From IMG/VR virus record IMGVR_UViG_2851976983_000004: 39,917 bases of DNA. The stretch is one strand, 5' to 3'. This document shows, piece by piece, positions 3,619-39,917 of the stretch. This DNA is from a virus. Lineage: Duplodnaviria > Heunggongvirae > Uroviricota > Caudoviricetes. Below the pieces are notes generated by a model. The model was given only the letters and a program-made list of their open reading frames with translations. It did no database searches and was not told the DNA's origin. Both the position numbers and the translations under genes were made by a program. Position 1 is the first letter of the stretch, and each line of letters begins with the position of its first letter.

Positions 3619-4812
3619 TTAAACCCCTTTGACAACGTCAGCGTTGACCTGTGGAACCCCGATTTCAGCGGCCAGATTCATGGCGGCTATCACCAGGTTA
3701 CTGACGGCCAGCGGATACAACAGGCTGACCATATTTTTACGATGACTTCCCGGATTGCTCAGGCGGGCACGTATGGCATCCACTGCACTGGCGTCCATAA
3801 TGTCCGTCAGTTGTTTACCTGCCCGTTGCAGTTTGAACGTCAGAAACTCTTCAAGGTTATTGTCCAGAGGCAGAAGTTCGACCACCTCACAGCGCTGAAC
3901 GACTTCACGGACTTCCATATTGCGTTCAGACAGTTTTGTCGCCAGTTCCGGCTGGCCAATCAGCACGATGGACAGCAGTTTTTTGAAACCGGACTCCAGC
4001 TCAAAAAAGCGTTTGAGGTGTTTCAGTGTCGGAATGGGCAGACTGTGGGCCTCCTCAATCACCAGAACGTGGCTGAACCCCGCCTGGCTGCTGTCTTTCA
4101 GGACGCGATGCAACTGGCGAAAGCGGGCGTCCTGACTGCGTCTGATGCTTTCCAGTGGTGCGATGGTACTGATAATGGCTTCGGCAATAGCTGCTGCCTT
4201 CAGGGTTTTCCCTTTCACATCGTTGTCTTCCATAGCGATGATGTATGGCTCGATAACAATTACCGGCGCATTCTCGCGGTTGATACGTTCAGTCAGGTCG
4301 CGGCGCAGCGTGGATTTACCCGCACCGGACTCACCGATGACGGCCATAAACCCACCATGACGGGCTGTCTGGTACAACGCCTCACGCACGTAGCGAATGT
4401 CCGGGGTGGTGAACACATCATCAGAACCCTGCATGGCTTCGTCGGCGAACGGGTCACGGAAAAGACCAAACGCTTTTTTGGTTGCCGGGAATAACACCTG
4501 TTTTTTGAGTAACATATTCTCTTCCTCACTGAGGCTCGTTTTATCTGTGGTACCCGCTGTACGGGGAGTGGCCGCGCCCTGTACAGCATCAAAACTCTTC
4601 GCTGTATCAATCCCCTGACTTTCCAGCCAGGACGCAAGACGCCGGCGCACTTCTCCGGGGCTGGTGCGGGGCCACGCGTTATGATTCACAATCTGGGCCA
4701 GCGTGGCCTCAGAAACATCGACAGCTCTCGCCACCACCGCCTGTGGAATACGGGCCTCTTTCAGTTGCTGCTTCAGTACCAGCATGTTTCCCTCCTCAGT
4801 TGCCGTTAACAA
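3619..4812 (-). CDS. MuB-like transposition ATPase (AAA+), N-terminal HTH
   Basis: 397-aa ORF with Walker A GESGAGKST; directly downstream of and overlapping the transposase gene. Confidence 0.85.
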   Translation of the reverse strand: MLTATEEGNMLVLKQQLKEARIPQAVVARAVDVSEATLAQIVNHNAWPRTSPGEVRRRLASWLESQGIDTAKSFDAVQGAATPRTAGTTDKTSLSEEENMLLKKQVLFPATKKAFGLFRDPFADEAMQGSDDVFTTPDIRYVREALYQTARHGGFMAVIGESGAGKSTLRRDLTERINRENAPVIVIEPYIIAMEDNDVKGKTLKAAAIAEAIISTIAPLESIRRSQDARFRQLHRVLKDSSQAGFSHVLVIEEAHSLPIPTLKHLKRFFELESGFKKLLSIVLIGQPELATKLSERNMEVREVVQRCEVVELLPLDNNLEEFLTFKLQRAGKQLTDIMDASAVDAIRARLSNPGSHRKNMVSLLYPLAVSNLVIAAMNLAAEIGVPQVNADVVKGV

Positions 4813-6565
4813 TGCTGATAACGCTGCTGCGGGCCGGCGTGGTCAGCGTGGCCATTACTTCATCCAGTGCGGCTTCCGGTACGCCGTCCGGGTACTGTGC
4901 CGTTAACTGGCGGTAATGTTCCGGCGTCCAGGTAAGGCCGTCGGCGCTGAACTTATCGCGTAGGGCTTTCGCGGCCTCCACATGAGTCATGGGACGTTGT
5001 TCAGTGCGCGGTCTGCGTACATCAGAGACCTGACCGCGCTTCGGTATACAGGCCGGAAGTGTGGCGTCATCAATATGTTTATACGGGTCAAGCCGCCCGC
5101 CGAACGGCAGCGCCTTCGCCTTGCGTGCGGCAGCTGCATCTGCGGCGTTGTCTGTACCGGTGACCAGCGCTTCGGTTTCTTTTGCCGCCGTCTGTGCCGG
5201 TGTTTCCGGCAGGGCTTTGTAACTTTCGCCAAATACCGCCGCGCCTTCAGCAAAGCCAAACTCGTTCTTTCTGACCTCTTCGACCAGGAAGAACGTCTCG
5301 TGGCCGTCCTCACCGGTCAGAACCACCTGTGCCACATCGCTGCGCCATGGGTTACGGGTAATCATCAGTTTTTCACCAACCAGTACGCCCGGTACCGTTG
5401 ATACGTCAAATTCAGTGCCCCGGAACGAGACACGAAGTTTTGGCGTGACTTTGCGGAGTTCTGGTGTCGCCACAGCCAGTTCACGGCATACCTCAACGGA
5501 AGGCGCTTTTTTCAGCTGCTCAGCAGTAATCTTCAGCCAGATATCCGTGCGGGTTTTACCGTGGCGGCTGTGAACAGCTGTTGCGTTAAAGTGGCTACGC
5601 CATTTCGCGGCCAGCGCGTTGAGTTCTTCCAGACTGTGAACCGGCCGGAATTTCAGACCCGGCTCAAGCTTGCGTTCGATAATGTCACGCGCCTTTTCCA
5701 CCTGTCCGGTGGCGCGGGCGTTATGCGGCTTGTGCGCTATCAGGTCGATGCCCAGTGAGCGGCACATGTTTTTCGTCATACCCGCGGTGTTTGCCGAGCC
5801 GGGGTCGAGATAGAGTATTTTCGGCACGCCGTGCAGCACGTCTGCGCCGCCACGCTCCTGCATGGCGTTGATAAGCACAGAACACAGGTTCTCACCGGAT
5901 TCCGCACCCGTCACATACTCAACGTAAATCCAGCCGCTGGCATGGTCGGTAATCTCGTAACTCCACACGCGGTCACTGGCGATACGGGCAAGGTTAGCGG
6001 GTTTGTTCTTGTAGAACTTCGCGCTGTCCATCACCTGCAGCCCTTTGTGTCCATTGCTCAGGTAGTAAAGCGTGCAGAGCGAGGCATCAATCTGCCAGAC
6101 GTGATTGGGATGCAGACTGGCCACTTCGGTATGCGGCGCAGGGGCATCCAGTTGTTCCGGGTGCAGGCCATAGTTACGCAAGGCACGACTGATGGCATCT
6201 TCGGACAACGGGAAAAACTCACCGGTGGTTTCATCTGTTCTGCCTGCGGAGATAAAGCCGTTAGCCCGCAGGGTTTCCACTGCATCTGCGATGGAATAGA
6301 GACGCTTACCGTTCTTGCGGGTGGCCTCACGCAGTGTGGCAGATATCAGCGCGGCTTCGTCGCGGGTCAGGGCGCTGCGCCCGGCATCGGCGCGTTTTTT
6401 GCGTTTATCAGTCACAGATACCTCCTTCAGCTTGCGCAGCAGAGTGGCGCGGGACATGCCAAGTTCAGCACAGGCAGCGTCGTATATTGCACCGCGTTTA
6501 CCATGCCCCGCGTCACGTGCCGCGCGGGCGACATAAACCAGTCGTTCAGTCAGGGCAGCATTCAT
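4796..6565 (-). CDS. Mu-type DDE transposase
   Basis: 589-aa ORF, N-terminal HTH region, integrase-like core (WQIDAS ... LDPGSAN ...), Mu A-like position upstream of the B-like ATPase. Confidence 0.85.
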   Translation of the reverse strand: MNAALTERLVYVARAARDAGHGKRGAIYDAACAELGMSRATLLRKLKEVSVTDKRKKRADAGRSALTRDEAALISATLREATRKNGKRLYSIADAVETLRANGFISAGRTDETTGEFFPLSEDAISRALRNYGLHPEQLDAPAPHTEVASLHPNHVWQIDASLCTLYYLSNGHKGLQVMDSAKFYKNKPANLARIASDRVWSYEITDHASGWIYVEYVTGAESGENLCSVLINAMQERGGADVLHGVPKILYLDPGSANTAGMTKNMCRSLGIDLIAHKPHNARATGQVEKARDIIERKLEPGLKFRPVHSLEELNALAAKWRSHFNATAVHSRHGKTRTDIWLKITAEQLKKAPSVEVCRELAVATPELRKVTPKLRVSFRGTEFDVSTVPGVLVGEKLMITRNPWRSDVAQVVLTGEDGHETFFLVEEVRKNEFGFAEGAAVFGESYKALPETPAQTAAKETEALVTGTDNAADAAAARKAKALPFGGRLDPYKHIDDATLPACIPKRGQVSDVRRPRTEQRPMTHVEAAKALRDKFSADGLTWTPEHYRQLTAQYPDGVPEAALDEVMATLTTPARSSVISIVNGN

Positions 6566-7799: not shown

Positions 7800-7851
7800 G
7801 TCACATTTCCATTTTTGCAATATGTGATAACCTGTTGCATATATGGAAAAT

Positions 7852-8040
7852 TTATGCCGCATTTGACGTGGGTTTTAATCCCAGCTTTACGGCAATTTCA
7901 TGGGCTTTGCCGTAACGAGCTTTGGTCTGTCCATTGAGAACACGATAGACCTCATTGCGGCTGTAGCCGTGTTCTTCGGCCCAGCGGGTAAACGTGATAC
8001 CACGCTGACGGAAGAGAGTTTTAACTTGTTCGGAAGTCAT
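7852..8040 (-). CDS. ner: Ner/Nlp-family DNA-binding protein (Cro-like early regulator)
   Basis: 62-aa ORF, FTRWAEEHGYSRNEVYRVLNGQ...AVKLGL resembles Ner/Nlp family; first gene of leftward operon; AAGGAG before ATG. Confidence 0.75.
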   Translation of the reverse strand: MTSEQVKTLFRQRGITFTRWAEEHGYSRNEVYRVLNGQTKARYGKAHEIAVKLGLKPTSNAA

Positions 8041-8087
8041 TGTTGTCTCCTTTGTTGATGCAATGATGTTTGTTTTATATGTGATAG

Positions 8088-8116
8088 ATTATGAGAACTA
8101 TTGTTCTCATTGTCAA
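8088..8116 (-). promoter_or_regulatory. candidate early promoter: -35 TTGACA, 17-nt spacer, -10 CATAAT
   Basis: On minus strand TTGACA (8116..8111), spacer, CATAAT (8093..8088), about 45 nt upstream of ner-like ATG. Confidence 0.5.
8091..8110. promoter_or_regulatory. perfect 20-bp palindrome ATGAGAACTATTGTTCTCAT, candidate operator
   Basis: 8-4-8 perfect inverted repeat lying within spacer and -10 of the candidate early promoter, between divergent regulator genes. Confidence 0.55.
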
Positions 8117-8552
8117 TGAGGTTTATGTGAATTTTGATTCTCTTTGCGCGTCGCGGTTCAAAGCTGAGCGTTCGCGGTTATCACTCAAGCAGGCTGAAGT
8201 AGCAGCCCTTTGTGGCGTTTCAAGAGAAATGTGGGGGAAATATGAACGAGGGGTTGCAGTTCCCGGAGGTGAGTTACTTGCAGCCTTTGCAAGAATTGGG
8301 GCCAACGTACAGTTCATTCTTACTGGGGAATCATCAGGTATAACTTTATCACGTGATGAAATGGAGTTACTTCAGCACTACCGGCAAGCACCGTTACAAG
8401 TCAAAGGTTCAGTTTTGTCGGCATTGACGACTGGCTCCTCCAGAGAACGGGCGGAACAGGTTATTCATGGAGATGTTCTGGGGAATGTTATCAAAGGTAA
8501 CGTAACCATAGGAACAGGTGGAATAATGAACAAAAATACAAAGAGAAAATGA
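8091..8552 (+). CDS. XRE-family HTH repressor (candidate lysogeny repressor)
   Basis: HTH segment LSLKQAEVAALCGVSREMWGKYERG; divergent from ner-like gene. ATG at 8091 lies inside the palindrome, so the real start may be GTG 8127 (GAGG upstream). Confidence 0.7.
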   Translation: MRTIVLIVNEVYVNFDSLCASRFKAERSRLSLKQAEVAALCGVSREMWGKYERGVAVPGGELLAAFARIGANVQFILTGESSGITLSRDEMELLQHYRQAPLQVKGSVLSALTTGSSRERAEQVIHGDVLGNVIKGNVTIGTGGIMNKNTKRK

Positions 8553-9535
8553 GTAAAGAGAAGCAAACAGTTAACGGAGATGTGGGTAACGTTGTCAGCG
8601 GTGATGTTACCATTCATAACTATTCTGCTGACATACTTCCCTCTGCCCAGCAACCAATTTCGTTGCTGCAAAAACGCGATTTACACAGATTGATGGATGA
8701 ATTGGTTGATCTGGGGGAAAGTAAGCGCGAACTATGGATGACGATCCACACGAAACTTAATACCAAAACAGTTAATGAAATGACTGCGGCTGATTATCAT
8801 GGTGCGGTTGAGATCCTCCAGAGATATGCACAACAGATCCAGAATATGAAGGACTGTAATCTTCTGGTCAGCAAAATAATGGTGCTTACTGACCCTAGGT
8901 ATCGTCTTGACCGTGACAGATACTGTCTGAAGCATTTCGGTACAACCCATCTTAAAGGCCTGGACAAAGAGCAGTTGCAGGCTGTGTTTGGTTATTTTGA
9001 TGATCTGCTGAATATTCGTGATGAGAGTAAAACTCTATCACCTCCATCGGACAGCGGGGCAAAATCAGTCGCGACTGTACCAACCAGAAGCCGGAAGCCT
9101 CATGTAGTAGTGTTGGGGGGAGCGTTAGTTCTTGTCGCAATATTTTTCGTGGGAATGATTGTGTTCGCTGGTAAATGGGGAAATGCTAAAGCAGTAGCAT
9201 CTACTGAAACCAGCGTTTTTAACATTAAAACCAACGACAAAATAATAGAAGATTCCATCCCAGCATTACGCAGCATGTTTCCAGGGTTAAATAAGTACTC
9301 AGATGATTTCCATTCGGTTTCAAGCTACAAGCAAAAATCGGGCTGGCATACCCTTAAATTCACGGTGTCTACACAGGCAATAATACCTGAATCTTATGGT
9401 GTTAAAGGGAAAACTTGTTACATCAACATAAACCCCGATGGTCGTTATGCCCGTGTTTTGACCGCCCCATGTAGAGCTCTATTACTTGACCAACAAAACA
9501 CTCCAGATAGTAAATATCGTTATATTTTGAAATAG
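8549..9535 (+). CDS. membrane protein, unknown function (single central TM helix)
   Basis: 328-aa ORF, ATGA overlap with repressor stop; hydrophobic stretch VVVLGGALVLVAIFFVGMIVFAG; AT-rich. Confidence 0.6.
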   Translation: MSKEKQTVNGDVGNVVSGDVTIHNYSADILPSAQQPISLLQKRDLHRLMDELVDLGESKRELWMTIHTKLNTKTVNEMTAADYHGAVEILQRYAQQIQNMKDCNLLVSKIMVLTDPRYRLDRDRYCLKHFGTTHLKGLDKEQLQAVFGYFDDLLNIRDESKTLSPPSDSGAKSVATVPTRSRKPHVVVLGGALVLVAIFFVGMIVFAGKWGNAKAVASTETSVFNIKTNDKIIEDSIPALRSMFPGLNKYSDDFHSVSSYKQKSGWHTLKFTVSTQAIIPESYGVKGKTCYININPDGRYARVLTAPCRALLLDQQNTPDSKYRYILK

Positions 9536-9555
9536 AAAATAACTGCGAGGCTATT

Positions 9556-10167
9556 ATGGGGCTAATTAAACGATATAGAACAGATTATCCGAACCAAGTA
9601 CATCAACTTTCTGTTGCTGTTTCAAAGCATTATTATGCGGGAGTTGATGGATTGCTTAAGTACCAGAAAAAACCATTTGATATAAAACTTAGCAATGCAA
9701 GTAAAACTGGAAAAGATCATTTACTAGTCTATTCGTTACGCGATCACTACAGTGGTTTGTTTTATATAGAATTGGCATTTCTTTCTACACCACAACCTAT
9801 AACAGCTTTTTTGGGAAGGGCATGGAGGCCAAAGGAAGATAACGTGTTACAGGGTCTTCCTGATATGCTGATGATCCCCAAAACTGTAGAAGATGAGTTC
9901 CCTAACGTATGTAATGCCGTTTATAACCAAGGAGTTGATCTTTTAAAAGTAACCAGCGGTTTTCAGAGTGGAGGGCTTATCGCCATACGAGCGGTAGAGG
10001 AAGATCTTAAATTCTACACAAATACTCCTATAGCACGAGTTCGTGAGGTTGCGGTTAAAACATGCAGATACAATGCTAATGATATCGCCCGAACCAATAA
10101 AGAAACAAAGCAAGAGATGTGGTTACGAAACGTCGGTCAGATAGATATACCTTCTCCAGATTTTTGA
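9556..10167 (+). CDS. hypothetical protein
   Basis: 203-aa ORF, GAGG about 8 nt upstream of ATG, AT-rich, no family recognised. Confidence 0.55.
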   Translation: MGLIKRYRTDYPNQVHQLSVAVSKHYYAGVDGLLKYQKKPFDIKLSNASKTGKDHLLVYSLRDHYSGLFYIELAFLSTPQPITAFLGRAWRPKEDNVLQGLPDMLMIPKTVEDEFPNVCNAVYNQGVDLLKVTSGFQSGGLIAIRAVEEDLKFYTNTPIARVREVAVKTCRYNANDIARTNKETKQEMWLRNVGQIDIPSPDF

Positions 10168-10429
10168 AACCTGAAATCACGGTGTCGACGGTTCATTCTG
10201 ACGCATCATTTATTCTCGTCAGTTGCCTCATATTCGTGCGTGCTAGGAAACATCGGCCAGAATATGTCTGGCATGGCGGCGTTTACAACCAATCCATGGA
10301 GCGATGGGGAATGTCTGCATTTTCATAATCTGTAACCCTTTTATAATTATAAAAAATATGGCAGGCTAGTCTGGTCTCGCGAGACTGACTGAACCTCGGT
10401 CGGCTCACAGTGCATTCCTGTGGGGCGAT

Positions 10430-10469
10430 GACCAGCCCGGAGTTCGGGTACCGGGCTGGTCGTTCTTTC
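10430..10469 (+). terminator. stem-loop (11-bp perfect stem) followed by GUUCUUUC, candidate terminator
   Basis: GACCAGCCCGG-agttcgggta-CCGGGCTGGTC at 10430-10461 then T-rich run. Confidence 0.4.
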
Positions 10470-10576
10470 ACTGTCAGAGTTCAGAGTGAAGTTTTGAGAT
10501 ACATGATTTCTATTAACGCGATTTACTGGATGCATTACCTACGTGCAGTGTTTGTTCGATAAGGATTGTTTTCTGA

Positions 10577-11152
10577 ATGGGAACGTATTACACACTTGAT
10601 TCCGCTAGTCGTCTGCCTTCGCCTTGTCATGTAATTACCGGAAAATACGAGCCTGAAATGCCAGAACTGGCCGCTTTTCTTCATCAGATGTATCCCAATG
10701 GCCTTTCGAGTCACGGGTATAACTATCTCTATAACCCCGGCCCTAAAATGGAAGATGACAGTGGAATCAGCAGAAGTCTGCTGGTCGGTCTGGTGTTTGA
10801 GTTAGTTCGCCGTAGCCATTTTCCTGATAAACCTTCCCGCTATCAGTCACTGTTTGCCTGTCAGCATCTGAGTGAAGTCAGGAAGTTCAGGGAATTACTG
10901 GCTGATGAGAGAGGCGAAGACGAAATAAGAACGGCACCGATATATGAAGTCATCACAAATGAGCAGGTGCATCGCGGAGATATGAGGTTATTGAACAGTG
11001 ATTGCCCGGTGCTGGAACTGTATCACCGTGCTTGGCTTTACTGGTCGGGTGAAGCAGCCCCAGTTAAGACTGGTGAGGACGAACCGTTCTGGGAACTGCT
11101 GATTCCGCTTCCAGTATTCGTTGGTCGAAGGATAACTGAATCGCAGGATTAG
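10577..11152 (+). CDS. hypothetical protein
   Basis: 191-aa ORF, no family recognised. Confidence 0.5.
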   Translation: MGTYYTLDSASRLPSPCHVITGKYEPEMPELAAFLHQMYPNGLSSHGYNYLYNPGPKMEDDSGISRSLLVGLVFELVRRSHFPDKPSRYQSLFACQHLSEVRKFRELLADERGEDEIRTAPIYEVITNEQVHRGDMRLLNSDCPVLELYHRAWLYWSGEAAPVKTGEDEPFWELLIPLPVFVGRRITESQD

Positions 11153-11387
11153 GTGCGGTTTTATATCGTGATGTCGCCGCCACATCGCCAATTAGCATGA
11201 CGTTGTTTTCTCCGCTGGCGAAATGACTTCTTCTCTCTTCAAGTGCAACCAGAACGTTTTTCAGCTCTATAATCGCTTCGGTTGGACAACATGCATCCAA
11301 GCTTAGCGTGTAAGTTTTATTCTGCTCTCCGATTCTGCTCCCAAAGAGGAACCCTTTTTTAATACCAGACTGTTTCGGTTCAGTCAT
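11064..11387 (-). CDS. hypothetical protein (convergent, overlaps 3' end of previous gene)
   Basis: ORF 11064..11447 trimmed to ATG 11387 preceded by GGGGAGG; overlaps 10577..11152 antisense by about 89 bp, so one of the two may be wrongly called. Confidence 0.3.
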   Translation of the reverse strand: MTEPKQSGIKKGFLFGSRIGEQNKTYTLSLDACCPTEAIIELKNVLVALEERRSHFASGENNVMLIGDVAATSRYKTAPNPAIQLSFDQRILEAESAVPRTVRPHQS

Positions 11388-11458
11388 TGTGCTTGCCTCC
11401 CCTATGTTTTGTGTGCGACCATTCTGGTCGCTTCCCTCTGCGAACACTTATAACGCGC

Positions 11459-11467
11459 TTTAAAATC
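11459..11467 (+). promoter_or_regulatory. recurring motif TTTAAAATC (candidate late promoter -10 region) upstream of lysis genes
   Basis: One of four occurrences of TTTAA(A/T)ATC 30-56 nt upstream of the first gene of a late gene block. Confidence 0.3.
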
Positions 11468-11517
11468 CGTATCCCGCCACATTTGTGATGCTGTCTCCAC
11501 CAAACAAGGAGACACAC

Positions 11518-11868
11518 ATGAAAAGCCTGAAAAAATTCATTCCCCCTGTTAAAAAACCTCGCCTCAGCGGCTGGCTGCTGACCTCAGTGCTGTTGCTGGG
11601 CACCATCGCTCTGGTCTCGCCACAGCAGTTGCCTGTTGTGATCTACAAGCTGGCACTCATCACGCTGGCAGCAGTGCTGGGTTACTGGCTTGACCGTTCG
11701 CTCTTCCCCAAAGCCCGTCCCGGTCAGTACCTGAAACATGAAGACAGGCTGATGGCTGAAGGGCGTTTCCCTGTGCAGACCGGCCTTCACCTTGTATTTT
11801 CTGCTGCGTTAATCCGCCGTGCACTGATTGTTGCAGCGGTCTGTCTGGCTGTGGCAACAGGACTGTGA
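11518..11868 (+). CDS. membrane protein, putative holin
   Basis: ATG at 11518 preceded by AAGGAG; about 116 aa with three hydrophobic segments; immediately upstream of endolysin. Confidence 0.45.
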   Translation: MKSLKKFIPPVKKPRLSGWLLTSVLLLGTIALVSPQQLPVVIYKLALITLAAVLGYWLDRSLFPKARPGQYLKHEDRLMAEGRFPVQTGLHLVFSAALIRRALIVAAVCLAVATGL

Positions 11869-36949: not shown

Positions 36950-37894
36950 ATGGCAAATCTACCTGAAACCCCACAGTGGGAAGACGGCATCTACCAGATT
37001 GAGGTCTCTGACCCCGTTCTGGGCGGGCCTGACGGAATTTCTAACCGTCAGGGTAAACAACTGGCCAGCCGCACGCTGTACCTGAAGCAACAGGTTGAAA
37101 AAGGCGGGGCTGACCTTGCGAAACACATCGCGGCAGCAGACCCGCATGCCCAGTATGCACCGAAAGCCAGTCCGGCATTCACCGGCACACCAACAGCACC
37201 TACACCTGCAAATGGCGATAACAGCAAAAAGCTGGCGACGACGGAGTTTGTGGCCAAAGCACTTGCGGCGCTTGCAGGCAGCGCCCCTGAGACACTGGAT
37301 ACGCTTAAAGAGCTGGCTGACGCTCTCGGTAATGATCCAAACTTTGCGACTACGGTACTGAACAAGCTGGCGGAAAAGCTGGCTAAAGACCAGAACGGCG
37401 CAGATATTCCTGATCCTGCGCTGTTTGTCAAAAACCTTGGTTTGGGAGAAGGTACTCCAGCTATTGGCGTTCCGTTCTTCTGGCCCTCCGCGGCAATGCC
37501 AAATACTGTAATCGACAGCTGGTCCAGTATGGTGTTTTTGAAGTTCAACGGGGCGAAATTTTCTGCCACTGATTACCCTGTGCTGGCGAAAGTGTTTCCT
37601 TCGCTGGTATTACCTGAAGCCCGCGGTGATTTCATTCGTATCTGGGATGACGGGCGAGGTGTAGACGGTGGTCGCGAATTATTAAGCTGGCAGGCAGCTA
37701 CAAACTTTTCTCAGTTTGCCGGGAATATAGGCGATGGTGCGGGCCACGCAATTAATTTTCATGATGGTATCGCCGGAAATCAGCCAGGATTTTCACGATT
37801 TAATTTCACCAGTAACTCTGTGGGTGATGGTGTGAATTTTGTTGCCGTCAGACCGCGAAATATTGCATTTAACTTTCTGGTGAGGGCTAAATGA
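36950..37894 (+). CDS. tail fibre protein (constant N-terminal part plus invertible C-terminal part)
   Basis: 314-aa ORF; crossover site inside gene at codons 159-167 (FVKNLGLGE). Confidence 0.75.
   Translation: MANLPETPQWEDGIYQIEVSDPVLGGPDGISNRQGKQLASRTLYLKQQVEKGGADLAKHIAAADPHAQYAPKASPAFTGTPTAPTPANGDNSKKLATTEFVAKALAALAGSAPETLDTLKELADALGNDPNFATTVLNKLAEKLAKDQNGADIPDPALFVKNLGLGEGTPAIGVPFFWPSAAMPNTVIDSWSSMVFLKFNGAKFSATDYPVLAKVFPSLVLPEARGDFIRIWDDGRGVDGGRELLSWQAATNFSQFAGNIGDGAGHAINFHDGIAGNQPGFSRFNFTSNSVGDGVNFVAVRPRNIAFNFLVRAK
37425..37450. repeat. invertase crossover site, left copy (hix/gix-like)
   Basis: Reverse complement TTCTCCCAAACCAAGGTTTTTGACAA closely resembles hixL as I remember it and matches the right copy at 21 of 26 positions. 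Confidence 0.65.
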
Positions 37895-38487
37895 TGACCC
37901 CAATTTTTGATGAAAATGGACTGGCTACAGTGCCGGGCGATATGCGTTGTTTTTATTATGATGCAGTAACGTATGAATATACGGGCTGGTCTGATGAATA
38001 TATTAATACTGGTGTAAGTATGCCCGCCTGTTCCACTGGTATTGACCCGGGCGAAAACATTCCGGGAAAAGTGGCAGTATTTACGGGTAAGGGATGGAGC
38101 CATGAAGAAGACCATCGCAATGAGACTGTTTACTCAACAGAAAATGGTGCAACTGTTACAGTGGATTATATCGGTGCCATCAAAGACGGTTATGTCACGC
38201 TTTCACCGTTAACGCCATACGATAAATGGGATGGTGAGAAATGGGTGACAGATTCTGAGGCACAACACGGTGCCGCAGTAGAAGCGGCAGAAGCACAGCG
38301 CCAGTCACTTATTGATGCAGCAATGGCTTCCATTAGTCTGATTCAGCTGAAATTACGGGCCGGGCGGAAGCTGATGCAGGCAGAGACCTCCCGACTTAAC
38401 ACTGTGCTGGATTACATTGACGCGGTGACGGCAACAGATACCAGCACCGCGCCGGATGTCATCTGGCCTGAACTGCCGGAGGAGTAG
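37891..38487 (+). CDS. tail fibre assembly protein (U-like)
   Basis: 198-aa ORF, C-terminal ...APDVIWPELPEE typical of tail fibre assembly proteins. Confidence 0.75.
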   Translation: MMTPIFDENGLATVPGDMRCFYYDAVTYEYTGWSDEYINTGVSMPACSTGIDPGENIPGKVAVFTGKGWSHEEDHRNETVYSTENGATVTVDYIGAIKDGYVTLSPLTPYDKWDGEKWVTDSEAQHGAAVEAAEAQRQSLIDAAMASISLIQLKLRAGRKLMQAETSRLNTVLDYIDAVTATDTSTAPDVIWPELPEE

Positions 38488-38899
38488 GCCATTCAATATC
38501 TGGCGCACTGGAAGTATCGACCAGCTCCAGTGCGTCCAGATAATCCAGCCACAAATTATATTGCGCCAGTTCCTCACCTTTCAGACGACCAATAGCCGCT
38601 TTACCAGCCCATTGTTTACTGTTCATATAATCGTTGGCCTGATTAATCAATTGCTGCTTTTTCAGTTCGGCTGCAGCAATCTGTTCCTCATGTGTTGGTG
38701 GTGGAATTTCAGACCATGCAGGAAAACCATTTTCTCCAGCGATACGGATTTTTCCTTTCGGCGGTAATCCGGAAAACTCAATATACACTTGCTCATCAAC
38801 TTCAACAGCATCATCTGGCCATGAGTCAGCTTGCGTGTAATCCTCTTTCATCTCCAAGGGATAGAAAGAGTTTGTAGTCGCGGAATATATGTAATTCAT
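38459..38899 (-). CDS. alternative tail fibre assembly protein (U-prime-like)
   Basis: 146-aa ORF convergent with U, C-terminal ...APDIEWPTPP. Confidence 0.7.
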   Translation of the reverse strand: MNYIYSATTNSFYPLEMKEDYTQADSWPDDAVEVDEQVYIEFSGLPPKGKIRIAGENGFPAWSEIPPPTHEEQIAAAELKKQQLINQANDYMNSKQWAGKAAIGRLKGEELAQYNLWLDYLDALELVDTSSAPDIEWPTPPAVQAR

Positions 38900-38925
38900 T
38901 TTTCACTCCATAAAGTTAAAAGAAA

Positions 38926-39273
38926 TTAACACCCTAATGCGAAAAATGAAGCACCGATACCGGGTACGCCTGCTCTGGAAATAAATTTCACCGGGTCCTG
39001 GTTATAACCGGCACAAGCTATATAGCCAACATTTGCACTGCCGGGAGTGTAATCCTGAGTTGCAAATACCCGCAGACATCTATTCGGAAATGCAATCGGA
39101 AAATAGGTTACTGTGTCCTGAGACGTCAGCGAAACATCAATTGGCCCCCATTGAATAATTAAACCGGATGGCAATTTTTGATATCCAGTACCTGAAACAG
39201 AAAGCGTGAAGCTACCCATATCAGGTATCTGATTCGTCCCTGTCCCCACATTCCTTTTTGCCGCTTCTCCCAA
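38926..39273 (-). CDS. alternative tail fibre C-terminal segment, promoterless until inversion
   Basis: Minus-strand ORF starting at the right crossover site; reads ...[10 protein letters not shown]..., sharing GLGE with the fibre gene at the left site. Confidence 0.65.
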
Positions 39274-39292
39274 ACCAACGTTTTCGTCTTAA
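39265..39292. repeat. invertase crossover site, right copy
   Basis: TTCTCCCAAACCAACGTTTTCGTCTTAA, inverted relative to left copy, just upstream of invertase gene. Confidence 0.65.
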
Positions 39293-39344
39293 CTCCCACC
39301 TATACCAGCTATGTATTTTTAACAAAACAAAGAGGATATTTTTC

Positions 39345-39917
39345 ATGCAAATTGGCTACATTCGTGTGTCAACAAATGACCAGAATACAGATTTACAACG
39401 AAACGCACTGAACTGCGCAGGATGTGAACTGATTTTTGAGGATAAAATCAGCGGAACAAAGTCAGCCCGACCGGGATTGAAAAAGCTGCTCAGAACGTTA
39501 TCAGAAGGAGATACGCTCGTTGTCTGGAAGCTGGATAGGCTGGGCAGAAGCATGAAACACCTTATCACTCTTATTGAGGAACTGCGGGGAAAAGGGGGTA
39601 ATTTCCGTAGTCTTACAGACAGCATTGATACGTCAACACCCATGGGACGTTTCTTTTTTCACGTCATGGGGGCTTTAGCGGAAATGGAGCGCGAATTAAT
39701 AGTTGAACGAACACTGGCCGGACTTGAGGCAGCACGTGCACAGGGGCGTATTGGCGGACGCCGTCCGAAACTGACAAAAGAGCAACATGAACAAATAGCA
39801 AGGCTGATCAAAAATGGCTATAGCAGGAAACAGTTGGCAATTATTTACGATATCGGTATATCGACGATTTATCGTTATCACCCTGTAGAGGAACTCCAAA
39901 CTCAAGCTAAGTTGTAA
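39345..39917 (+). CDS. serine DNA invertase (Gin/Hin/Pin family)
   Basis: MQIGYIRVSTNDQNTDLQRNAL... with catalytic-serine motif and C-terminal HTH; AGAGGA 8 nt upstream; ORF table start 39258 is an upstream extension. Confidence 0.9.
   Translation: MQIGYIRVSTNDQNTDLQRNALNCAGCELIFEDKISGTKSARPGLKKLLRTLSEGDTLVVWKLDRLGRSMKHLITLIEELRGKGGNFRSLTDSIDTSTPMGRFFFHVMGALAEMERELIVERTLAGLEAARAQGRIGGRRPKLTKEQHEQIARLIKNGYSRKQLAIIYDIGISTIYRYHPVEELQTQAKL

Follow-up and report, generated by a model that had tools for sequence, protein, structure and literature searches.

Truncated or inactive transposase derivatives are known to inhibit transposition, as with the Inh protein of Tn5 and the KP repressor of the P element. 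At the cell envelope, Llp of phage T5, Cor, and Ltp of TP-J34 are prophage exclusion lipoproteins, and SieA and Imm are exclusion proteins of the inner membrane. In the Pseudomonas transposable phage Fc02, superinfection exclusion is conferred by a gene that apparently lies on the repressor transcript, just upstream of the repressor (PMC9936078). Cargo genes beside prophage repressors are already known as a source of exclusion and defence functions, and finding such genes is ordinary. Herein, an AT-rich block of genes at 8549-11450 of the IMG/VR virus record IMGVR_UViG_2851976983_000004 was analyzed; the window below means this whole stretch of 39,917 nucleotides (nt). The window is a BcepMu-like (Mu-like) transposable prophage of Escherichia coli, and the block lies between its immunity repressor and its lysis genes. 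The 203-amino-acid (aa) protein of the block is predicted to be a free-standing, catalytically dead copy of the DDE transposase core of this phage family. The best explanation of the block as a whole, held at a probability of about 0.5, is a cargo slot with the dead-core protein in a string of genes that would be expressed in the lysogen, the products of which would act in superinfection exclusion and in interference with transposition.

The two genes compared for this conclusion are as follows.

9556..10167, + strand: 203-aa stand-alone, predicted catalytically dead homologue of the DDE transposase core (RNase H-like fold), 20 nt after the 328-aa gene and preceded by a GAGG ribosome-binding site.
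4796..6565, - strand: resident DDE transposase of the active type, 589 aa, annotated as 'integrase catalytic domain-containing protein' by the Prokaryotic Genome Annotation Pipeline (PGAP) and collinear with the transposase P0227 (E 1e-34).

The 203-aa protein had no match in Pfam, NCBIfam, PHROGs, or PADLOC. When the profile of its family was searched by sequence against solved structures, chance matches only were obtained (E >0.5); the relationship to transposases was revealed by fold comparison. The AlphaFold2 (AF2) model of the protein has a predicted local distance difference test score (pLDDT) of 91.7 and a predicted template modelling score (pTM) of 0.88, and it displays the RNase H-like catalytic core fold of the rve type found in the Mu family. 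Fold comparison gave values of 16.0 with TnsB of a CRISPR-associated transposon, 14.9 with IstA, 14.6 with TnsB of Tn7, 12-14 with retroviral integrases, and 11.6 with MuA. Sequence comparison agreed with the structural result. The alignment of the 203-aa family with the core of the resident transposase by hhalign reached 96% probability (E 3.9e-9), and the family profile matched the full-length Mu-like transposases P0227 (E 1e-20) and P0245 (E 7e-18). By BLASTP, the 203-aa protein is 35% identical to P0227 over 101 residues (E 9e-15), and by tblastn it matched annotated DDE transposases on plasmids. The protein aligns only to about residues 148-348 of the 589-aa transposase; the end-binding N-terminal domains and the C-terminal domain are absent.

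The catalytic triad was then compared. The predicted catalytic residues of the resident transposase are D160 (in WQID), D254 (in YLD), and E290 (in GQVE), and two of them, D254 and E290, fall on the D and E of the retroviral-type integrase chain 6voy when aligned. Thirteen members of the 203-aa family and three homologous transposases were aligned with MAFFT. In this joint alignment, the transposases carry the first D in WQID or HQLD, the second D in YLD, IID, or ILD, and the E in GQVE or GSVE. The triad is lost in 13 of the 13 aligned family members: the position of D160 is occupied by S, T, A, I, V, L, or M, that of D254 by P (rarely T), and that of E290 by G or S. The same loss is given by hhalign for the 203-aa family, and a six-residue deletion precedes the E position in the aligned members. 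Other motifs are retained, namely PN.VHQ, Y.KK, (R/T)DH.SG, FL..AW, G.P, and TK.E.W. Because the DDE triad is lost while these other motifs are kept, the protein resembles a pseudo-enzyme that has preserved its fold and probably its binding surfaces.

The family of the 203-aa protein is large. About 50 close relatives were found, all of them annotated as 'hypothetical' and without a Pfam domain. The profile search returned 550 clusters at 50% identity with E <=1e-3, of which 98 had E <=1e-30, and most of the members are 190-240 aa long. The family spreads from Enterobacterales to Leptospira. In Enterobacterales, the gene is found repeatedly in the immunity operon of transposable prophages. Elsewhere, members are single genes, in Flagellatimonas next to ParE and an insertion sequence (IS) element. 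Members in islands accompany either DUF2442, ParE, and an integrase, or RhuM and a group II intron. Others lie close to HipA, SNF2, and DndB in a conjugative element or close to Mrr, CoiA, and a resolvase, and plasmids of Leptospira, Pseudomonas, and Cupriavidus carry members amid toxin-antitoxin genes and IS elements. No member was found among 50,697 phage records. Four proteins of 490-1,184 aa (P0113, P0153, P0179, and P0182) have the dead core at the N-terminus and tetratricopeptide (TPR)/ST7-like repeats at the C-terminus; one of them also has GLUG repeats. A conserved upstream partner of the family was considered and rejected: the neighbours at distant loci, namely RhuM and a 382-aa protein that weakly matches DUF429, are related neither to one another nor to the 328-aa protein. 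Since the upstream neighbours are unrelated to each other, the 203-aa family appears to work on its own.

On these grounds a mode of action can be proposed. The 203-aa protein would bind what a transposase core binds, that is, transposon-end or target DNA or transposase subunits, and would do so without catalysis. Such binding would damp or poison transposition of the Mu type, whether by competition for transposon-end or target DNA or because the protein serves as a poison subunit. The interference could be aimed at incoming related transposable phages or at leaky activity of the resident transposase. Interference with transposition is estimated to have about one chance in three, and a binding or defence role independent of transposition is about as likely. 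A broader view can also be offered tentatively. The family may be a large unannotated group of 'pseudo-transposases' that mobile elements and hosts deploy as an anti-transposition immunity factor, with the repressor and the 328-aa protein perhaps communicating through a shared motif (described below). As part of the same tentative view, such proteins might block the integration and the replicative transposition of transposable phages, and perhaps of Tn7-like or IS21-like transposons.

It is also possible, although the odds are against it, that the 203-aa protein has nothing to do with transposition. The RNase H-like scaffold would then have been domesticated to bind nucleic acid or protein, as the sensor or effector of a defence or addiction system that stands alone, and the prophage would carry it as coincidental cargo. 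This explanation fits the single genes found in islands with toxin-antitoxin genes, Mrr, DndB, SNF2, and RhuM and on the plasmids of Leptospira, Pseudomonas, and Cupriavidus; it also fits the members fused to TPR/ST7-like repeats and the failure to find any member in the phage records. However, the nearest active relatives are specifically transposases of the Mu/BcepMu type, and exactly the DDE triad has been lost with the non-catalytic motifs kept, which is the pattern of a binding-competent pseudo-enzyme. The repeated presence of the gene within the immunity operon of transposable prophages in Enterobacterales also argues against mere coincidence.

The reading of the 203-aa protein as an inactive transposase core is joined to a second question, namely the setting of its gene. 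The gene follows the repressor gene and the gene of a membrane protein, the features of which are listed below.

8091..8552, + strand: XRE-type helix-turn-helix (HTH) immunity repressor, 153 aa as annotated (Pfam HTH_31, E 4.7e-7, and HTH_3; NCBIfam RstR/DicA-like).
8549..9535, + strand: predicted 328-aa bitopic inner-membrane protein (phrog_10002, E 1.4e-222, matched end to end).
About 8651-9013, + strand: Flk-like cytoplasmic helical domain of the 328-aa protein (NCBIfam Flk PRK10715).
9101-9172, + strand: transmembrane helix of the 328-aa protein (residues 185-208), the single hydrophobic segment.
About 9212-9532, + strand: periplasmic alpha/beta domain of the 328-aa protein with two invariant Cys (AF2 model and alignment).

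The repressor gene is divergent from the early genes, which encode a ner-like protein, an IclR-type HTH protein, and the transposase; the 203-aa gene lies outside the early operon. A near-consensus sigma-70 promoter (TTGACA-17-CATAAT, 11/12) lies at 8088-8116 on the - strand, inside the annotated 5' end of the repressor gene and aimed at the ner-like and early genes. Translation of the repressor may truly begin at GTG 8127, in line with the start called for the Salmonella relative (141 aa).

The same order of genes was found in other genera. The prophage of Salmonella Java carries a 141-aa repressor, a 329-aa protein, and a 203-aa protein, followed directly by the holin. In the prophages of Serratia quinivorans, a 138-aa repressor, a 327-aa protein, and a 206-aa protein are followed by a 146-aa gene and then the holin. 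The identity of these relatives to the proteins of the window is 42% for the repressor, 30% for the 328-aa protein, and 57% for the 203-aa protein. The spacing is tight in the relatives too, with an ATGA overlap or 16 nt at the first junction and then 11-20 nt; in the window, the 203-aa gene with its GAGG site follows the 328-aa gene after 20 nt. Co-expression with the repressor is reasonable because the genes are tightly packed and their order is kept in Salmonella and Serratia, and it is a reasonable inference that the repressor-328-203 string is an operon transcribed with the repressor in the lysogen. Comparative evidence supports the presence of lysogen-expressed cargo at this classic position.

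The 328-aa protein was compared with known proteins domain by domain. Twenty-four homologues were found, in Enterobacterales only. In the AF2 model, residues 1-30 are disordered, a helical domain (about residues 35-155) and an alpha/beta domain (about residues 225-328) are both predicted with pLDDT of about 90, and a variable linker and one hydrophobic helix (185-208) lie between them. Residues 19-147 match residues 14-143 of Flk (NCBIfam PRK10715/NF007987) with 44.1 bits and E 1.6e-11, against an equivalog cut-off of 353 bits. Because the match is far below this cut-off and covers only the N-terminal 130 residues, the Flk-like part is a homologous domain and not an orthologue. In the C-terminal domain, C290 and C308 are invariant in the family alignment, and from this pair the periplasmic domain is predicted to be disulfide-bearing. 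The model had no match among viral structures (BFVD) at E 0.001 or better.

The envelope location is predicted from the one transmembrane helix, the invariant Cys pair, and the presence of a homologous domain behind a lipobox in KP12-type phages. In prophages of the KP12 type, the gene after the heteroimmune repressor encodes a 177-aa protein with a lipoprotein signal and lipobox (…LSGC). The mature lipoprotein is homologous to the C-terminal domain of the 328-aa protein, both Cys included (E 2e-17). By this comparison, one exported domain directly follows the repressor in two immunity types, anchored by a transmembrane helix in the first and by lipid in the second. From this shared arrangement, a function of the 328-aa protein at the envelope of the lysogen is proposed. 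There it would most likely exclude superinfecting phage at DNA entry, and envelope-level superinfection exclusion is the role that we infer for it.

A peptide motif shared with the repressor leads to a different proposal. The C-terminal tail of the repressor has the motif HGDVLGNVIKGNVTI (residues 126-140, nt 8466-8510), which resembles the N-terminus of the 328-aa protein, where the motif is NGDVGNVVSGDVTI (nt 8573-8614). The repressor ends with …HGDVLGNVIKGNVTIGTGG… and the 328-aa protein begins with …NGDVGNVVSGDVTIHNY. The shared pattern is G-D-V-(L)-G-N-V-x-x-G-x-V-T-I, and the DNA stretches align too. The pair of repressor and 327-aa protein in Serratia has the same feature (…HGKVGNVVQGDMT… and …KGDVGNVAGRDVI…), as does the Salmonella pair. 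G10, G13, N14, V15, and V20 are invariant across the 328-aa family. Three other repressor types (136, 142, and 118 aa) and the genes downstream of them are without the motif. The motif may be left over from duplication or gene fission, or it may serve as a peptide for interaction or recognition.

If it is the latter, the 328-aa protein could be a partner or regulator of the repressor rather than an exclusion factor, its N-terminal GDVGNVV.GDVTI mimicking or pairing with the repressor tail. The peptide could anchor the repressor at the membrane, compete for a protease or adaptor, or link an envelope signal to immunity or induction. We consider such a partnership unlikely, with enough in its favour to be kept in view. 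E. coli, Salmonella, and Serratia all have the motif in both proteins in spite of overall identities of 42% and 30%, and it is absent from the three other repressor types and the genes 3' of them. The repressor and 328-aa genes are translationally coupled through the ATGA overlap. The cytoplasmic domain is homologous to Flk, and Flk, known from Salmonella and E. coli, is a membrane-anchored regulator of the flagellar export switch. However, the motif region is predicted to be disordered (pLDDT <50), and the similarity at the DNA level could be a functionless leftover of duplication or gene fission. The periplasmic domain, moreover, is kept as a lipoprotein after a repressor that lacks the tail. 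Since it is this domain alone that is retained there, the conserved activity is argued to be periplasmic.

The remaining question is whether the block is one unit. The sequence-only reading of the window had described an AT-rich cassette of genes, starting on the stop codon of the repressor with a membrane-protein gene and lying between the immunity region and the lysis genes. These descriptions held. All four of the open reading frames (ORFs) that it had proposed are present, at 8549-9535 (328 aa), 9556-10167 (203 aa), 10577-11152 (191 aa), and 11064-11387 on the - strand. The letters read directly show that the ATG at 8549-8551 overlaps the TGA at 8550-8552 as ATGA, and the membrane protein has one hydrophobic segment at residues 185-208. 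The guanine-plus-cytosine (GC) fraction is 0.439 over 8549-11450 and 0.541 in the remainder of the window; the lowest value in the block, 0.389, is that of the 203-aa gene. The block is flanked by the XRE repressor (8091-8552) on the left and by the holin and the SLT transglycosylase on the right. The same reading had recognised none of the proteins, and this has been overtaken, since they are now placed as Flk-like, as derived from a DDE transposase core, and as a DUF2441 protein of the ADP-ribosyltransferase clan. In the remote-homology check, none matched ordinary phage replication or structural genes, the nearest case being the transposase-core origin of the 203-aa protein.

The distribution of the parts was counted in 5,426 complete genomes of E. 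coli. A portion of 8000-11600, in the form of the flanks, was found in 636 genomes, the full cassette in 27, the 328-aa gene in 127 (with 93.6% identity in the 100 beyond the cassette-bearing ones), the pair of 328-aa and 203-aa genes in 27, and the DUF2441 segment in 33. The full cassette is 99.9-100% identical across its 27 genomes. The contents of the slot between repressor and holin differ among related prophages as follows; the phage PhiKM has alternative contents as well.

Window: 153-aa repressor, 328-aa gene, 203-aa gene, dam stub, DUF2441 gene, small convergent gene.
E. coli IAI39: repressor and 328-aa gene as in the window, followed by unrelated genes, one of 193 aa and one for a 158-aa P-loop protein.
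ST131 O25b: 118-aa repressor, dam, and three other genes.
KP12: 136-aa repressor, 177-aa protein, dam, DUF2441 gene.

The 193-aa gene of IAI39 was considered as a diverged 203-aa homologue and was ruled out (E 1.9). The 158-aa P-loop gene of this sister prophage (locus L004, 7074-8169) lies on the reverse strand and is annotated as 'ABC transporter ATPase'. The related BcepMu-like prophages hold wholly different genes in this place, which bears out the cargo ('moron') position proposed from the sequence. These data indicate that the interval between repressor and holin is a hypervariable cargo slot that holds three separately inherited units and one deletion scar. The units are the repressor-328-203 string, the 5' stub of dam, and the DUF2441 gene together with the convergent gene, which are common to KP12. 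The features of the right part are listed here.

10258..10326, - strand: scar of dam (DNA adenine methylase), its first 23 codons and then a stop (tblastn with Dam, 70% identity over residues 1-23).
10320..10347, + strand: sigma-70-like match TTTTCA-16-TATAAT (consensus scan, 10/12), a candidate promoter of the DUF2441 gene itself.
10577..11152, + strand: DUF2441 protein gene, 191 aa (Pfam PF10386, E 1.7e-7, 31.8 bits versus a cut-off of 25; phrog_5663, E 2.3e-65).
11064..11387, - strand: small convergent gene, 107 aa from the ATG (127 aa from an upstream GTG), with a GGAGG Shine-Dalgarno sequence before the ATG.
11518..11868, + strand: holin, the first gene of the lysis cassette and the right-hand limit of the variable slot (Pfam Holin_2-3, E 1.5e-40; 'putative holin' in PGAP).

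The block is not homogeneous, because the apparent gap at 10168-10576 (409 nt) holds the truncated start of dam. By megablast, 10250-10470 matched genes annotated as dam, at 86-92%, in some 500 genomes of E. coli. By blastn, the homology to the KP12-type backbone runs from about 10246 onward, marking a recombination junction. The left part (the 328-aa and 203-aa genes) has therefore displaced the rest of dam and whatever preceded it, and the right part (dam stub, DUF2441 gene, small gene, and holin) is the older backbone. The match at 10320-10347 is weak evidence for a promoter because matches of this kind are no more numerous in the region than expected from shuffling; the promoter and terminator scan as a whole likewise yielded no excess over shuffled sequence. 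Between dam and the DUF2441 gene, at 10374-10385, lies a perfect 12-bp palindrome, GTCTCGCGAGAC, which could be an operator. The repeat search of 8000-11600 found no repeats marking the edges of the cassette, and the Rfam scan of 7800-11700 gave sub-threshold chance matches only.

The DUF2441 gene and its neighbour were also compared with other genomes. All 27 of 27 DUF2441 homologues carry PF10386, and the DNA of the segment is 89.7% identical to KP12. Pfam places DUF2441 in the ADP-ribosyltransferase clan (PMC7955679), and in the literature the family was found only in lists of the families of this clan. The family profile matches PDB 2aua (E 8.5e-12), an uncharacterised protein that is the only solved relative. 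The invariant residues include R88, D135, and E173, from which no catalytic assignment is possible by sequence. The possible convergent ORF of 107 aa is a real gene: besides its Shine-Dalgarno sequence, it is intact in phage KP12, and homologues are called beside DUF2441 in another E. coli prophage (109 aa, 60% identical) and in a Salmonella prophage (79 aa, 50% identical). Its conserved core covers about residues 4-75; at the 3' end the gene runs into the end of the DUF2441 gene, and this overlapping tail is read-through. The product of 107 or 127 aa had no match in Pfam, PHROG, NCBIfam, or PADLOC. In a lambdoid prophage of Enterobacter hormaechei (locus L022, 5001-5729), a DUF2441 gene with 37% identity lies between the lysis cassette and the small terminase subunit. 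The convergent gene as a universal partner of DUF2441 was rejected: the 70-aa convergent gene in the same position in Enterobacter has no sequence similarity to it. Because this neighbour is dissimilar, the pairing is supported only within BcepMu-like phages. A toxin-like protein of the ADP-ribosyltransferase fold with a small partner is a possibility, and the pair would act independently of the repressor-328-203 string.

The same data bear on the proposal of the sequence-only reading that the three or four genes are one co-evolved, co-transcribed defence or lysogenic-conversion module. The + strand genes are alike in orientation and low GC, and the near-perfect identity of the whole cassette in its 27 genomes is what such a module would give. 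However, every component is found without the others, and between the 203-aa gene and the DUF2441 gene lie the dam stub and some 400 nt of divergent-promoter DNA. The right half is a backbone shared with KP12 and is preceded there by different genes, and the Salmonella relative has the repressor-329-203 order followed directly by the holin, without DUF2441. With parts that differ in distribution and a dam scar between the halves, a single module is very improbable. Conservation beside XRE repressors, which that reading had named as a check, was found in Salmonella and Serratia for the repressor-328-203 order and not for the whole four-gene block. The least credible view of all is that the block has lost its function and is a set of decaying remnants of recombination in a defective prophage. 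Although the dam stub shows a deletion at the locus and a neighbouring phage gene in IAI39 is a pseudogene, the four ORFs are intact with protein-level conservation of 30-60% identity across genera, the structure models are confident, and the Mu-like gene set of the prophage is complete.

Several observations weigh against the preferred explanation of a cargo slot with exclusion and transposition interference. The 203-aa protein is only about 24% identical to the core of the resident transposase. Most members of its family are in non-Mu settings, which allows a function unrelated to transposition, and the TPR-fused members are compatible with such a function too. In MuA, the N-terminal end-binding domains and the C-terminal domain make most of the contacts with other subunits and with MuB. 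Because the domains with most of these contacts are absent, the entry of the 203-aa protein into a transpososome is not assured. No sigma-70 promoter match for the repressor transcript was found in the consensus scan. In PADLOC-DB v2, the 328-, 203-, 191-, and 127-aa products had no match at E up to 1, and the HTH domain of the repressor alone matched, to HTH-containing models. The periplasmic domain of the 328-aa protein had no significant structural match to known exclusion proteins, and the motif shared with the repressor hints at a regulatory link that the exclusion model leaves unexplained.

DNA 100% identical to 8000-11600 is found in chromosomal prophages of several E. coli strains, B7A and TW10573 among them. 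Of the sequenced phages, Klebsiella phage KP12 and Escherichia phage PhiKM (Bcepmuvirus) come nearest, with matches limited to the flanks or the right half. In TW10573, the genes are ordered as in a BcepMu-like transposable phage. The annotation of TW10573 by PGAP, in which the Mu-like gene set is complete, calls the three + strand genes of the cassette and not the convergent ORF; the other genes are as follows.

TW10573 prophage, - strand: Mor, Gam, ExeA-family ATPase, DDE transposase, DUF3102, IclR-type HTH, and ner-like 'BcepMu_gp16 family' protein.
TW10573 prophage, + strand: XRE repressor, holin, SLT transglycosylase, spanin, and Mu-type portal and head genes.

The initiation regions of the ner-like gene (8037-8060, - strand) and of the holin-containing ORF (11498-11521, + strand) are inverted, near-identical copies of each other (AACAAGGAGACA..ATGA; 24 nt, 75% complementary). 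A second stretch of low GC (0.43-0.50) at 37500-39917, at the right end of the prophage, has ORFs on both strands and may be a further cargo region.

The new part of this locus is the 203-aa family, which is confidently modelled and widely distributed and is without an entry in the copies of Pfam, NCBIfam, PHROG, and PADLOC that were searched. Its member here belongs to the immunity operon of a phage whose own replication depends on transposition. If the protein inhibits transposition, it would represent a new mechanism of exclusion or immunity against the one step that is unique to transposable phages, as well as a new example of a bacterial pseudo-enzyme. It could in that case serve as a tool for the control of transposases of the Mu, Tn7, or CRISPR-associated transposon (CAST) type. 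The pseudo-transposase family is the part most deserving of follow-up. Smaller leads are the periplasmic domain, carried on a transmembrane anchor or on a lipoprotein anchor in heteroimmune relatives, and the peptide motif common to the repressor tail and the downstream membrane protein.

Compared with known systems, the locus has both likenesses and differences. Like Flk, the 328-aa protein has a membrane anchor, a cytoplasmic N-terminus, and a matching cytoplasmic domain. Flk is tail-anchored with essentially no periplasmic part; unlike it, the 328-aa protein is phage-borne and has a predicted folded periplasmic domain of about 120 residues after helix 185-208. The 328-aa protein is like the envelope exclusion proteins named at the outset (Llp, Cor, Ltp, SieA, and Imm) in having a lysogen-side gene by the repressor and a predicted periplasm-exposed product; it has no sequence or fold similarity to them. 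The olg1 system of Fc02 also belongs to a transposable phage with genes apparently on the repressor transcript, one of which excludes superinfecting phages; however, the olg1 product is 7.9 kDa and its gene lies upstream of the repressor (PMC9936078), whereas the 328-aa and 203-aa genes lie downstream, and no sequence relationship is apparent. In contrast to the transposases of the MuA, TnsB, and BcepMu type, the 203-aa protein consists of the core only (about 200 aa), its triad is replaced, and its gene is in the immunity operon rather than the early operon. No paper on inactive transposase-derived proteins in prophage defence was found in the literature. With Tn5 Inh and KP, the 203-aa protein shares a transposase-derived and predicted non-catalytic nature and production by or alongside the element, and it could plausibly act as a competitor or poison subunit. 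Inh and KP come from the transposase gene itself and are nearly identical to the transposase, whereas the 203-aa protein is encoded by a separate, anciently diverged gene (about 24% identity) that forms its own family and for which inhibition is hypothetical here.

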